DNA of 64,000 nt. It comes from a virus. Its lineage: Duplodnaviria; Caudoviricetes. The notes beneath the pieces are model-generated. The model searched no databases. It saw nothing but the letters and a program-made list of their open reading frames with translations, and was not told the origin of the DNA. Of this stretch, positions 38,778 to 64,000 are shown piece by piece (position 1 is the stretch's first letter; each line of letters opens with the position of its first letter). The DNA is taken from the IMG/VR virus record IMGVR_UViG_3300047160_002455, positions 13,048 to 77,047 of that record. One strand, written 5' to 3'. The translations under genes were made by a program, and so were the position numbers.

Positions 38778-39767
38778 ATGGAAGCGTACCAATTGCTAGA
38801 GCGGGAGTTCGCGGAGTTTAACCAAGTCAGCCCCGATCACATGGTTGTCTGTTCATCGGGGACTGCCGCCTTGCACTTGGCACTGGAGACAACCCGCGCC
38901 GTAATGCCTGACGCGCAGGTGCTGGTGCCCAGTTTTTCGATGATTGCCTGCGCGCGGGCGGTCTCATTAGCGGGCGGTGACCCAGCTTTCATGGACTGTG
39001 ACGAACAGCTGCTAGTCACTCCAGATACGGCAATGCCCGCATACACGCAAGCGCTGCTGAGAAGCTACGTGTCGGCAATGATGCCCGTCCATGTCTACGG
39101 TCGGAAGTGCGACATGGAAGGCATCCATGAGTTTGCCAAGGCGCGGGCGCTGACGGTAGTCGAGGATTTAGCGGAGGCACATGGCATCCGCCCACACCCT
39201 GAAAGTCAGGCAGCGTGCTGGAGTTTTTACAAAAACAAGATTGTTCACGGTGAAGAGGGCGGCGCGTGTTGGTTTGTGTCGAGGGTCGATGCCGACCGGG
39301 CGCGCTCACTCCGCAATCTGGGGTTCACCCCCGCGCACGATTTCCGGCATCTACCGCGAGGTCACAACTACCGGCTGGCAAACCTGCTAGCCGAACCGAT
39401 CCGCGCCAATTTGGGCAACTATGCCTACCATTTGCAATGCCGCCGCGAATGGGAAGCGGATTACGATGCCGCCTGCCCTGCCGATTGGAAAATGCCCGCG
39501 CGACAAGCACCGTGGGTTTATGACATTCGCATTCAAGGTATGACGGGGTCGGAACAGGATAGTGTAGTAGCGGAGTTGAACAAGGCGGGCATCGCGGCGC
39601 GGCACAGCTTCAAACCGGGCACTTCCCAGTTAGAGTATCGAGGGTGCAAGGGGAACGGTGACGCGGCGCGTGCTGCCTCAAGGGAGGTGATTTACCTACC
39701 GTTGACGCTGGGACAAGTGGACCCGAAGAAAGCATTCGGGGTCATTCGCACGGTGCTAGGGAGATGA
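38778..39767 (+). CDS. DegT/DnrJ/EryC1/StrS aminotransferase (perosamine synthase-like)
   Basis: CSSGTAALHLAL, VEDLAEAHG, SFYKNKIVHGEEGG (PLP lysine), NYRL. Confidence 0.9.
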   Translation: MEAYQLLEREFAEFNQVSPDHMVVCSSGTAALHLALETTRAVMPDAQVLVPSFSMIACARAVSLAGGDPAFMDCDEQLLVTPDTAMPAYTQALLRSYVSAMMPVHVYGRKCDMEGIHEFAKARALTVVEDLAEAHGIRPHPESQAACWSFYKNKIVHGEEGGACWFVSRVDADRARSLRNLGFTPAHDFRHLPRGHNYRLANLLAEPIRANLGNYAYHLQCRREWEADYDAACPADWKMPARQAPWVYDIRIQGMTGSEQDSVVAELNKAGIAARHSFKPGTSQLEYRGCKGNGDAARAASREVIYLPLTLGQVDPKKAFGVIRTVLGR

Positions 39768-58482: not shown

Positions 58483-58770
58483 CTATTGAATCACGACACC
58501 AAGGATTTCGTCCTCAATCATGCAAAGGAACTCCCCTTCATCGGCGCGGATTTTCCGCCCGCTGACATCGGCAACGACCTCGACTAAATCCCCTTCTTTC
58601 ACCTGTTTACACTCTGGACCGATGCCGACTACCCGCGCTTTGGTCGGATGCGACATATCCAGTCCAGACTGCGCCGGTAAGACCAGACCCGCTTTCGTCT
58701 TGGTCTCCGTCAACAGTTCCATCAGCACTTTTTTGCCGACAGGTTTGATCCATGCTTTAGCGCGCTCCAT
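58483..58770 (-). CDS. groES: co-chaperonin GroES (Cpn10)
   Basis: IKPVGKKVL...KTKAGLVLP...ARVVGIGP...VKEGD.V...EDEILGVV. Confidence 0.85.
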   Translation of the reverse strand: MERAKAWIKPVGKKVLMELLTETKTKAGLVLPAQSGLDMSHPTKARVVGIGPECKQVKEGDLVEVVADVSGRKIRADEGEFLCMIEDEILGVVIQ

Positions 58771-58786: not shown

Positions 58787-58825
58787 AAAAAAATGCCTCT
58801 CCCCTGTCTCGATTATCGGGGTGGC
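58787..58825 (-). terminator. intrinsic terminator after solitary repeat unit
   Basis: GCC-CCCC...GGGG-GGC stem followed by T7 on the - strand. Confidence 0.55.
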
Positions 58826-58885
58826 TGCCATACCTTGCCACATGATGCCTTTCCCCGACCCACCACAGCGTGCCATACCTCAGAC
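58821..58885 (-). ncRNA. solitary GGY-NN guide-like unit
   Basis: Same anchor (GGCA-GCC) and 11 in-phase pentamers as the large array. Starts at the AAA gene stop codon. Confidence 0.7.
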
Positions 58886-59761: not shown

Positions 59762-60041
59762 GGGGTCTCTCCATCATTGCCTTTGAAAGCGCCCCCAGTG
59801 CCGCCAGTATCTTCAAGGTTGCCTCGTCCCGGTCGGCAATCTGTTTTACTTCCGCTAGCTGTTTCTCCGTCAGGGGTGGACCAACCGCCCCCTCGCTAGC
59901 AAGCCATTCTTGGCACTGCAGGCATTCCCGCCAGTGTGCGTAGACGATAGCGCGTAACAGCGTCGGCACGTCACCGAAGTTATTGCCGGTGCATACGTCA
60001 CGGAACTCTTGGCACGTCACCTTTTCCCGGTGCATCTCCAT
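59688..60041 (-). CDS. small protein with anti-sigma-type zinc finger (zf-HC2-like)
   Basis: TCQEFRD...AHWRECLQCQEWL (C...HxxxCxxC). Confidence 0.55.
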   Translation of the reverse strand: MEMHREKVTCQEFRDVCTGNNFGDVPTLLRAIVYAHWRECLQCQEWLASEGAVGPPLTEKQLAEVKQIADRDEATLKILAALGALSKAMMERPHASSDQTVPKGGETPPTAADPCHE

Positions 60042-60213
60042 GTCCTCCTGCTGCTCTTAGTTTCGCTTCGTGGACCTCCAGACGATCAATTGTAATCTCT
60101 TTCGGCGCGGTTATGCCCAGCCTCGACATTCCCTGCCGCGCTTCCAGCACCTCAACTCGGATGTTTCCAGCAATTACGATAACCTCACCCACCTGCCGGG
60201 TTAAGACAAGCAT
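59998..60213 (-). CDS. csrA: carbon storage regulator CsrA/RsmA homolog
   Basis: MLVLTRQVGEVIVIAGNIRVEVL...RLGITAPKEITIDRLEV. Confidence 0.9.
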   Translation of the reverse strand: MLVLTRQVGEVIVIAGNIRVEVLEARQGMSRLGITAPKEITIDRLEVHEAKLRAAGGHGDAPGKGDVPRVP

Positions 60214-61377: not shown

Positions 61378-61409
61378 AAAAAAGCAGGGATGCCGGGCAG
61401 CATCGCCCT
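61378..61409 (-). terminator. intrinsic terminator closing the repeat array
   Basis: AGGG-ATGC/GCAT-CCCT stem followed by T6 on the - strand, right after the last array unit. Confidence 0.6.
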
Positions 61410-61422
61410 AACCTTTCTGTGC

Positions 61423-64000
61423 TTAACCCGGCACCCTGCGCTCTCCCGTGACCGCCCAGACGCGCCTAAACCCATCCTAACTAAGCACGACAGAGCACGG
61501 CATGGCTGCCATGTCTGGGCTCGTCTGACCAAAGCAGACCCAGACGCGCCTTACACCTCGACTGCCACACCATACCACGAAACGTCTCACCAAGTCTCAA
61601 CAGACCCCGCCTTGGATGCCGCGCCAGACCAAAACCCGGCTTGCCCCGCCCAGACCTGCCTCGACTGCCACGCCTCACCGGAGCCAAACTCACCCCGGCA
61701 GAACTTGACAAACCCGGACATGGCAGCCTCGACTGACCGCGCCTCTCCTTTCCAGGGCTTACCCGGACTAGACCGCCAGACCAATCCTAACCTGACCGCG
61801 CCTCGACTCTCCATGTCATGACAGGGCAGGACTCGACTGCCTCACCAGACAGGCAACTGTCCATGTCTCGACTCCTCAAGACACACCACAGCAAGCGTCA
61901 TCATGACCGCCTTGCCTCAGCTAAGCTAAACAGGACACAGCTTGACTAAACTGACCATGACCGCCTTACCATAGGTAACCCGGACACACCTGGACAGCCT
62001 AGCCGAACCCAGACATGAAACCATGACTGCCACACCAAGCGCAGACACACCGGACCACTCCTAAACGTGTCTCAGCTTGCCATGACCGCCACGACATACC
62101 CCACCTTAATAAGACTCACCTCGACTCGACAAACCATGTCTGCCGCGCCCCACCCAGCCTGACCGCGTCTCGACTCTCCAGACCATGCCATAACGCGCCA
62201 AGACTGCCGAAACTCACCGTGACATACGCCACCTGTCCTCGTGGCAACATGCCACTCCGTAGCCGGGCAGACCAAACCTCGACTGCCAAGACTTACCTTG
62301 CGACAGCTTGCCAATCCATAGCATACCGCGCCTTAGCGTGACTGCCACAACGGACCATGCCTTGACTCAGCGCAGCTTTCCCTGCCACAGCGCAGATGCC
62401 ACAACACACGAGACCAGTCCCAGACATATCGCGACTCGCGACACCAAGACCGCCGAGCCAAACCCAGACACAGGACTCCGTTCCTTGCCTTAGCCTACCA
62501 TAGCCCTCCATGACTTACCTAACCACACCAGAGCAGCCCAAACTCACCGTGACTTGCCCCGCCGATCCCCGACGTGCGCCGCCGCGCCAGCGAGACCATG
62601 CCTTGCGAAGCCCGACGTAGCCTTACCCGGACACACCTAGACTGCCAAGCCGAAGCTAACGCCGCCTCTCCCGAACCGGACAGACCTCGACACGGCATGA
62701 CTGCCAAGCGTCACCGGACCTCAGCACGGCACACCAAGACAGACCCGGCATTGCCTCGACTGCGCTACCACAACACACCGTGCCTAGCCCAGTCCAGAGC
62801 AACCGAAGCGCGACTGCCAAACCAAGCCAGAACTGACCACCCCGCGCTACACCGTGCATTGCGGTGCCTGAGCAGCGCAGCCAGACCCTGACTCAACCAG
62901 CCTCTTCTTGGCTAGTCACACCAAGTCAGCCTCACCCCGACTTAACTCGACTTGTGAAAGCCGAACCAGGGCAGCCTGACCCGACCTAGCCTTGACCGAT
63001 CCAGACACACCTGAGCGCGACTGGGATACCATGCCTCAACATTCCATGCCGCAACAGGGCTGTCCGAGACTGACCTTGGCATGTCACGACCGCCTAGAGA
63101 AGACACGACCTTCCCAGACGAAACATGCTGCACCACGGCAGCGTTACCGCGCCAGGTCTCAACAGACCATTCCGCGCCAGGGCTCGTGTTGCCCTACCTC
63201 GACTGCCGCGCCAGGTCTGACCGTGACAAAACCCGTCTCTCCAGAACGCGCCACGGCAGCGGTGCCTTACCAAGACTAGACGCTCCTCAACTGCCTAAGC
63301 GCGCCTCTCCTCAACTCACCGAGACAGAACACGGCAGCCTAACCCTGCCAGGGCGGACGTAGCCAGGGATGCCATAACGCGCCTTTCCATGTCATTCCTT
63401 ACCAAGCCGTGCGCCACCGGACCCAGACGCACCATAGCACGCCCAGACCGGACACGACAGCCAGACCATGCGCCAACGGAAGCCAACTCAACTCTCCAGA
63501 CCACAGCGCGACATGGCTGCCACGCCCCGCCGCTGCCCGACGTACCTAGACCAGACTTGACAGCCACAGCTTACCAAGCCGGGACGGAACTCAGCGCAAC
63601 AGAACATAACAAACCTCGACTGCCGTACCCCGCCAAGCCGGAACGGAACTTAACGTAACACGGCATGACAGGACTCACCATGACCGCCATGCGCTGCCAC
63701 GCCTTTCCTTATCGGGATCGTGACATAGCAGACCAGGGCTGCCATAGCTTGCCTTCACACGACTGAGCACAGCTAGCCATGTCTGCCACACCTAACCGGG
63801 GCGGACCTCTCCCAGACTAACCAAGACAGCCTAGCCATGCCTAGACTCTAGGACAGGACTTGCCATAACACACCGTGTCTGCCGCAACCCACCGTACCAG
63901 ACCGCGCCCGGACTCGACTGCCGAACCTGACCCCGCCCGACCCTGCCGGGACGAAACAGAACGCACCGGACCCAGACTGCCGGAACGCACCGGGACAATC
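61423..64000 (-). repeat. array of about 45 GGY-NN pentamer units (putative non-contiguous guide RNA array, VIPR-like); runs off window edge
   Basis: Strict 5-nt periodicity (- strand GGY+NN, with variants GTC/GTT/GCT/GAC/GGA). A 4-nt anchor GGCR/GGCT plus GTC/GCC resets the phase every 6-17 pentamers. No credible ORF. NN positions decode to conserved protein motifs. Confidence 0.92.

Follow-up and report, generated by a model that had tools for sequence, protein, structure and literature searches.

We analyzed a 64,000-nucleotide (nt) stretch of a soil phage, hereafter the window, taken from IMG/VR record IMGVR_UViG_3300047160_002455; it comprises bases 13048-77047 of a viral contig of 77,047 nt, and its end is the end of that contig. 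The last part of the window is very probably an array of vrRNAs, the guides of VIPR (Viral Interference Programmable Repeat), and very probably works by the VIPR mechanism. VIPR is a phage RNA-guided DNA-silencing system (bioRxiv 10.64898/2026.04.26.720920). The system is already known: it was described in 2026, and its code is rediscovered here. The units of the array measure 5n+4 nt and overlap by 1 nt, which is the published structure of staggered arrays; thus, the code recovered from the sequence had already been published. Individual target assignments are much less certain than the VIPR identity of the array. We raise, as a speculative and on balance unlikely proposal, that this soil phage silences host anti-phage functions (an AddAB-type helicase-nuclease and the Druantia protein DruE) through VIPR guides placed on unchangeable catalytic motifs, besides silencing rival mobile elements.

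A staggered array of five-nucleotide repeats

Published vrRNAs consist of 9-16 YNNGG repeats, with related consensus forms allowed. Vipr protomers polymerize on this RNA, bury each GGY, and present the two variable bases (NN). Under the “1 nt skip rule,” these bases pair with double-stranded DNA, and each third base, usually the codon wobble, is skipped. The outcome is transcriptional silencing, mostly of competing mobile elements (bioRxiv 10.64898/2026.04.26.720920). In staggered arrays, vrRNAs overlap by 1 nt (bioRxiv 10.64898/2026.04.26.720920, fig. S18).

The tract at the end of the window displays this organization on its - strand. Between about 61405 and 64000, there is no open reading frame (ORF) of more than 143 aa, the GC skew is -0.2 to -0.3, and base identity at lag 5 is 0.41 versus approximately 0.25 in control regions. 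The 5-nt periodicity is confined to the array and absent from the rest of the 77-kb contig. The repeat is NN-G-B-Y: a variable NN followed by the triplet G-B-Y. Across 470 pentamers, G occupies position 3 in 91%, G, T, or C occupies position 4 in 95%, and C or T occupies position 5 in 90%; the triplets seen most are GGC, GGT, GTC, GTT, and GCT. Every 44-64 nt, the pentamer phase shifts by -1 at GG/C-N-G-Y-C (mostly GGCAGTC), where the slash marks the boundary. The resulting units are 44, 49, 54, 59, or 64 nt long, and neighboring units share a single nucleotide, the C of GG/C. Each unit is composed of a 5-nt handle (C-N-G-Y-C) and 8-13 pentamers of the form NN-G-B-Y (mostly 10-13), and it closes on a final NN-GG. 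The array holds about 45-50 units; some 50 rows were parsed, 35 of them with at least 8 NN. Tandem Repeats Finder returned nothing in the array, and an Rfam search of it (E up to 1) gave no match and no ribozyme. On its 3' side, the array closes with a terminator-like site some 45 nt ahead of the start of an exonuclease gene. No RNA run that holds the array stretch is listed; we infer that the array is transcribed from the - strand and processed into vrRNAs.

Related loci tie this grammar to a protein family. When IMG/VR was scanned for nothing but this grammar, as five pentamers, a boundary, and four pentamers, at least 119 loci matched, and almost all are G-skewed, non-coding, period-5 tracts of 300-2,600 nt. 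One family dominates the flanking ORFs: it has 85 members, mostly 250-290 aa in length, which usually lie directly upstream of the tract and on the G-rich strand. The profile of this family matches PDB 36pp, the “SUSP1 Vipr protein,” in the glycine-loop region (E = 4e-8). The Vipr-like family is without a Pfam domain and comprises at least 2,918 public proteins at E of 1e-10 or better. Many of the IMG/VR arrays are located at contig ends, more than a dozen of them within about 25 nt of the end, a pattern suggesting that metagenome assemblies commonly break at vrRNA arrays.

Decoded guides and their candidate targets

The preliminary description of the window had read five array units as helicase core motifs, taking two letters per codon and skipping the wobble base. 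All five dinucleotide strings were re-derived from the - strand as described, with coordinates within 2 nt (Table 1), and the gapped two-letter code is real: it is the 1 nt skip rule of VIPR. Eight of the 16 dinucleotides are ambiguous (D/E, F/L, I/M, K/N, H/Q, S/R, Y/stop, and C/W/stop). The peptide readings involve a choice among ambiguous readings, yet they are far beyond chance. Shuffled controls, in which the NN were permuted among all guide positions 20,000 times, did not reproduce the helicase motifs. A hydrophobic strand followed by D/E-D/E-x-H/Q (GA-GA-NN-CA), observed three times, had a shuffle mean of 0.014, and none of the 20,000 shuffles reached three. GxGK[ST] and KGLEF, each observed once, had means of 0.004 and 0.001 and were reached in 84 and 25 of the 20,000 shuffles, respectively. 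The string [D/N/S]PP[F/Y], observed three times in neighboring units, had a mean of 0.008, and its count was reached in 0/20,000.

Table 1. Coordinates of features in the window (position 1 is the first base of the 64,000-nt stretch).
Feature	Position	Strand	Description
Staggered VIPR vrRNA array (very probable)	61405-64000	-	Period 5; no ORF; 5' side cut by the contig end
Terminator-like hairpin and T-run	61380-61404	-	Stem 61404-61389, tail CCTGCTTTTT; consensus match only
Guide A	61565-61618	-	AA GG CT GA TT GA GT GT AT GT = (K/N)GL(D/E)(F/L)(D/E)VV(I/M)V; handle CATCC
Guide B	61776-61839	-	12 NN = (D/E)LL(I/M)(I/M)(D/E)(D/E)A(H/Q)(Y/stop)(F/L)L; superfamily 2 (SF2) motif II; peptide reading DLLIIDEAHY(L/F)L; DLLIIDEAHYLL
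Guide C	61840-61909	-	11 NN = (I/M)(D/E)(F/L)VV(F/L)(D/E)(D/E)(I/M)(H/Q)A; peptide reading IDLVVLDEIHA; irregular 3' end after the 11 NN
Guide D	62143-62206	-	12 NN = (F/L)A(I/M)(I/M)L(D/E)(D/E)A(H/Q)(C/W)GA; FAIILDEAHWGA
Guide E	62536-62595	-	11 NN = LAGTGSG(K/N)T(D/E)(C/W); SF2 motif I/Walker A; handle TCTCG
Further units with motif readings	63829-63786, 63686-63623, 63622-63564, 63519-63461	-	DNA methyltransferase motif IV and GHKL G1 box
Solitary vrRNA-like unit	58821-58885	-	11 pentamers; directly after the AAA_24 stop codon
CsrA homolog	59998-60213	-	71 aa; 1.2 kb from the array, downstream
GroES/Cpn10 homolog	58483-58770	-	95 aa; within 3 kb downstream of the array
DegT/DnrJ/EryC1-family aminotransferase	38778-39767	+	Pfam E = 9e-44

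Guide A reads as KGLEFDVVIV, a conserved C-terminal motif of UvrD-family superfamily 1 (SF1) helicases. Its full 20-base pattern has at least 120 exact matches in 185,579 species genomes, versus about 1 expected by chance; 117 of the 120 matches listed follow the frame of the longest ORF, with the reading KGLEF[D/E]VVIV. Acidobacteriota, mostly Terracidiphilus or Acidobacteriaceae, account for 35 of 80 matches listed. Within Terracidiphilus, 54 of 61 genomes match at no more than 1 mismatch (38 exactly), each at a single site. Among these 54 sites, variation at the skipped bases is free, and a reversed-pattern control gave 0 matches. In a family-wide sample of Acidobacteriaceae, guide A is matched exactly in 3 of 81. 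The matched gene in Terracidiphilus encodes a protein of 1,225-1,300 aa with UvrD-helicase, UvrD_C, and PD-(D/E)XK (PDDEXK) domains; its best NCBIfam model is AddA, at a score below the curated cutoff, and the gene is located directly downstream of a TIGR03623 AddB-like gene. Host addA, encoding this AddA/RecB-like helicase-nuclease of Terracidiphilus, is a possible target of guide A, and we see the question as nearly balanced, tilting slightly to the negative.

Guide E points to a defense system. Its 9-NN core has six matches in IMG/VR, five of them in frame. Three of the six are DruE proteins of the DruE2, DruE3, and DruE4 types (PADLOC 467, 507, and 2602 bits, respectively), with motif I at 9/11 NN; the other three are an out-of-frame match and two matches to SPRY proteins, which are unrelated. 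Across 151 Terracidiphilus genomes, only one full-length DruE was found (G229:C72:2178-7733, 1763 bits), and guide E fits its motif I at 9/11 NN, with the reading TTGTGSGKTEC. On the Walker A of addA, guide E attains only 7/11. We tentatively name motif I of Druantia DruE as the target of guide E, an assignment that we hold with distinctly less than even confidence.

The remaining guides lead elsewhere. The full 12-NN pattern of guide B has 0 exact matches in IMG/VR, and its 9-NN core has 22, all of them in frame and 21 at 10/12 NN, in SNF2-type proteins of 310-639 aa (SNF2-rel_dom; phrog_62 “DNA helicase”). The core of guide C has three IMG/VR matches at 9/11, each in frame: two lie where terminase large subunits carry the Walker B of TerL_ATPase (VVFDEIHA), and the third lies in baseplate gp6. 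Guide D, including its full-length exact pattern, has no match in IMG/VR, and in JGI metagenomes it meets only one sequence, out of frame and with an in-frame stop codon. Judged by sequence matches, guide B would be directed at SNF2-type DNA helicases and guide C at terminase large subunits, in both cases of other phages. Several guides do not converge on SNF2 loci, guides B, C, and D have no match to DruE motif II, and the five guides show no convergence on one gene or element.

These results redraw the earlier picture of a helicase-directed array. Matches in helicase genes and in codon phase had been anticipated for all five units; they were found for guide A (UvrD family), guide B (SNF2), and guide E (DruE, in three of six), and not for guide C, which leads to TerL, or guide D, for which no target was found. 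Three sequences had been thought to converge on helicase motif II, a view that we abandon, as only guide B is tied to a helicase, guide C leads to the TerL Walker B, and guide D is without a credible target. Among the defense families that had been named, Druantia is retained through guide E on DruE (9/11), and HsdR, Type III Res, and DISARM are without a best match; the ResIII, DrmD, and DrmA models gave weak partial matches only, inside SNF2 or DruE proteins. The statement that no SF1/SF2 helicase is encoded in the window was correct: the Pfam models DEAD, ResIII, and UvrD-helicase find nothing in the 77-kb contig, whose sole replication protein with a P-loop is a 734-aa primase/helicase (phrog_239).

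Other units of the array also read as protein motifs. Four further units on the - strand (Table 1) give DNA methyltransferase motif IV (FYCDPPYV, IDLIVTNPPFGT, and DFILADPPFNV) and a GHKL G1 box (IAVLDDGPGIL). An HsdM-like guide is matched in 1 of 61 Terracidiphilus genomes, with 3 mismatches. No guide matches its own contig at 80% of NN or more, as published for VIPR; the best own-contig match is 0.75, for a guide of 8 NN, and the distribution of such matches is the same as for shuffled guides.

Terracidiphilus (Acidobacteriaceae) is the probable host genus. The soil origin and the 56% GC of the phage are compatible with such a host. The closest DNA polymerases among cultured phages are those of Thermus phages, at only about 23% identity; the window contains no tRNA genes, and a Cpn10 search returned the phage's own cluster only.

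A series of observations weighs against the proposal that the phage silences the anti-phage functions of this host. The host assignment draws on guides A and E alone. Neither a CRISPR-spacer nor a prophage link to Terracidiphilus was found (in one genome, a stretch of 28 nt matches but does not belong to a CRISPR spacer), and there are no staggered arrays in 151 genomes of the genus. At no more than 1 mismatch, guide A has matches in a Burkholderiales family too (12 of 61 genomes), and it also matches UvrD/HelD-like genes of actinomycetes; its string is a widely conserved motif, and the true target could be another gene that carries it. Guides B and C have no match in 61 Terracidiphilus genomes, and guide D has none in 201 Acidobacteriaceae genomes at up to 3 mismatches. 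Moreover, guides B, C, and E were matched via an exact 9-NN core, such that the 82-83% match is partly built in, and the match counts of guides C (3) and E (6) are close to chance, roughly estimated at about 2 matches for a pattern of 18 fixed bases. The DruE of genome G229 carries one internal TAA stop; this gene may be a pseudogene or reflect an assembly error.

A different account is one that we consider a real possibility though short of probable: the array is a VIPR array, with all five guides aimed at competing phages, satellites, or plasmids, and the addA and DruE matches are by-products of shared P-loop motifs. The published natural targets of VIPR are almost all mobile elements, guides B and C match phage genes best, and the guide A string is also present in unrelated clades. 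Such by-products would not be expected to place guide A in 89% of Terracidiphilus genomes versus 3/81 exact matches in the family-wide sample. Nor do they fit the matches of guide E: three of its four helicase matches are DruE, each of a different Druantia type, and to these comes the only DruE of the candidate host genus.

The missing vipr gene, guide turnover, and neighboring genes

The VIPR identity of the array has its own counterpoint: a hidden Markov model search (E up to 10) found no Vipr homolog on the 77-kb contig. The array is cut by the contig end on the side where relatives carry vipr. A public contig of 125 kb with an identical neighboring exonuclease gene (ENA assembly ERZ27257208; gene table) carries, in order, a 513-aa intein-UDG gene, a 277-aa ORF, a 161-aa ORF, 2,985 nt without real genes, and an exonuclease-CsrA-AAA_24-Cpn10-DNA polymerase block. 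A second public contig has a 3,413-nt gene-free stretch instead of the 2,985 nt. The 277-aa and 161-aa ORFs are no more than candidates for vipr and vap; 277 aa falls among the lengths of Vipr proteins. JGI metagenomes have no match to an exact 43-mer taken from where the array ends, and the phage's own protein was not identifiable among the best 120 of at least 2,918 proteins of the Vipr-like family. The record is rated 100% complete by CheckV, yet the 125-kb contig has the identical block plus the intein-UDG, 277-aa, and 161-aa ORFs that are absent here. Because of these extra genes beside an identical exonuclease block, the 77-kb record is probably a fragment.

The same gap admits a further explanation, which we regard as improbable: the array is an orphan (VIPR-null) set of vrRNAs without its own Vipr, which borrows or misdirects the Vipr of co-infecting phages. 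Orphan vrRNAs are documented in satellites and solo-vrRNA phages (bioRxiv 10.64898/2026.10.15.759431), the 77-kb contig has no vipr, and a solitary unit occurs elsewhere in the genome. Opposed to this are the truncation of the array by the contig end, the position of vipr just upstream in related loci, and the two candidate ORFs at exactly that place on the longer contig, one of them of Vipr size.

The solitary unit reads EITVGGKIVKI, which resembles EMTIAGKVTKM of the adjacent AAA_24 gene. Its best match on the contig is in frame in AAA_24 at 7/11 NN; a score of 7/11 is attained at some place on the contig by 18% of shuffles as well. Orthologs of AAA_24 in related phages may be its target.

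The array stretch was found in soil metagenomes of more than 20 studies, and its content varies. In four soil runs, array pieces that are at least 99% identical branch into other sequence at unit boundaries or close to them (near 61655, 61791, 62016, and 63914), and one soil contig skips 198 nt, from 61817 to 62016. Guides thus turn over as cassettes, by gain, loss, or replacement. This turnover probably explains the assembly breaks at the array.

Two accounts dispense with guides. Coincidence or reader bias, with arbitrary NN, is a very improbable source of the peptide-like readings. Ambiguity affects half of the dinucleotides, and the motifs were chosen after the fact; these concerns meet a DExH count that no shuffle reached, matches in frame in the predicted families (117 of the 120 listed for guide A and 22/22 for guide B), and a reversed-pattern control of 0 versus 54. 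Weakest of all, and to our minds negligible, is a binding platform or sponge for a TRAP-type ring protein (a triplet plus a 2-nt spacer, 11-12 per unit), a CsrA sponge, a G-quadruplex, or a priming-site repeat: the 3+2 periodicity with 10-13 repeats per unit is like TRAP sites, a CsrA gene lies nearby, and GTC, GTT, and GCT are primase recognition triplets, but the in-frame coding matches are left unexplained, GGA (the CsrA motif) is a minority triplet (29/470), homologous arrays adjoin Vipr homologs, and published biochemistry assigns the grammar to Vipr. Given the natural relatives of the array and the VIPR papers, we set aside TRAP-like ring binding, a CsrA sponge, a Rho sponge, a G-quadruplex, a primase-site cluster, quintuplet decoding, and a synthetic insert.

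The surroundings of the array include homologs of CsrA and GroES/Cpn10 (Table 1). Elsewhere, the window encodes an aminotransferase of the DegT/DnrJ/EryC1 family, which may be linked to sugar or DNA modification, and also several methyltransferase genes. The neighboring PD-(D/E)XK exonuclease was considered as vap and rejected: a 47%-identical homolog is found elsewhere without an array, and the gene is not a recurrent array neighbor.

Proposed mechanism and known systems

By analogy with type II VIPR, the - strand of the array would be transcribed, and protomers of Vipr, a small Cas7-like RAMP protein, would polymerize along each unit, bury G-B-Y, and expose NN. The NN pairs would then bind one strand of double-stranded DNA, with every third target base skipped, and the bound complex would block transcription. 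Since the skipped base is the one at the wobble position of the codon, each guide can be read as a peptide, and synonymous changes do not abolish its match. Guides on catalytic motifs would also tolerate most non-synonymous drift.

The guides of this array appear to be of two sorts: some against competitors, as in the published role of VIPR, and others against anti-phage functions of the host, a role that is unreported. The VIPR papers cited here make no mention of RecBCD/AddAB, Druantia, or helicase-motif targets, so the anti-defense reading would be new. The array is among the largest vrRNA arrays in this analysis, and it varies by whole units. Targeting at the level of motifs would extend the published idea that wobble skipping counters synonymous escape: it would also defeat most non-synonymous escape and cover whole gene families. 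If the anti-defense reading is true, VIPR is also a programmable anti-defense tool, and guide content could predict the hosts of uncultured phages, here Terracidiphilus.

The nearest known system is the staggered VIPR array (bioRxiv 10.64898/2026.04.26.720920). Both are phage-borne and consist of abutting units of pentamers, each with a conserved triplet and variable NN, with a 1-nt overlap; both are free of a ribozyme and of a long tail between units. The array described here differs in its very large size (at least 2.6 kb, with gene-free stretches of 2,985 and 3,413 nt on the two other contigs) and in its triplet, which is relaxed to G-B-Y. Because vipr and vap lie outside the contig, the VIPR type (I-VII) of the array is not assignable.

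Type II VIPR of Escherichia phage SUSP1 and of a Pseudomonas fulva prophage clade (bioRxiv 10.64898/2026.04.26.720927, PDB 36pp) shares the wobble-aligned 1-nt skip and, by the profile match to 36pp, the protein family of related loci; here, too, silencing rather than cutting is the default model. The vrRNAs of SUSP1 differ in being about 100 nt long, with an invariant 3' pseudoknot tail and 4 per locus. The targets of these type II systems are a satellite and regulators of prophages, rather than host genes or the catalytic motifs of enzymes. Satellites and VIPR-null phages carry solo or orphan vrRNAs (bioRxiv 10.64898/2026.10.15.759431), which resemble the lone unit at 58821-58885, with no vipr on the contig. 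These vrRNAs differ from the main array, which most likely lies beside vipr on the full genome and for which no decoy-type (REP) or vipr-directed target was seen.

Two further comparisons concern what the guides would do and how they are built. Phages counter RecBCD/AddAB with protein inhibitors: lambda Gam, T7 gp5.9, and P22 Abc. If guide A acts on host addA, the result would be alike, namely, loss of the host's main linear-DNA exonuclease. The means would differ, as guide A would bring about RNA-guided transcriptional silencing of the gene instead of protein inhibition, and it would presumably be slower. Class 1 CRISPR systems with Cas7 backbones are alike in that RAMP protomers polymerize on a guide RNA and periodically exclude bases, and in that guides are organized in arrays. 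VIPR differs in its period of 5 with 2 paired bases, rather than 6 with 5 paired, and in having no repeats and spacers, no cas1/cas2, and no known acquisition machinery; in VIPR, motifs are matched instead of unique protospacers.

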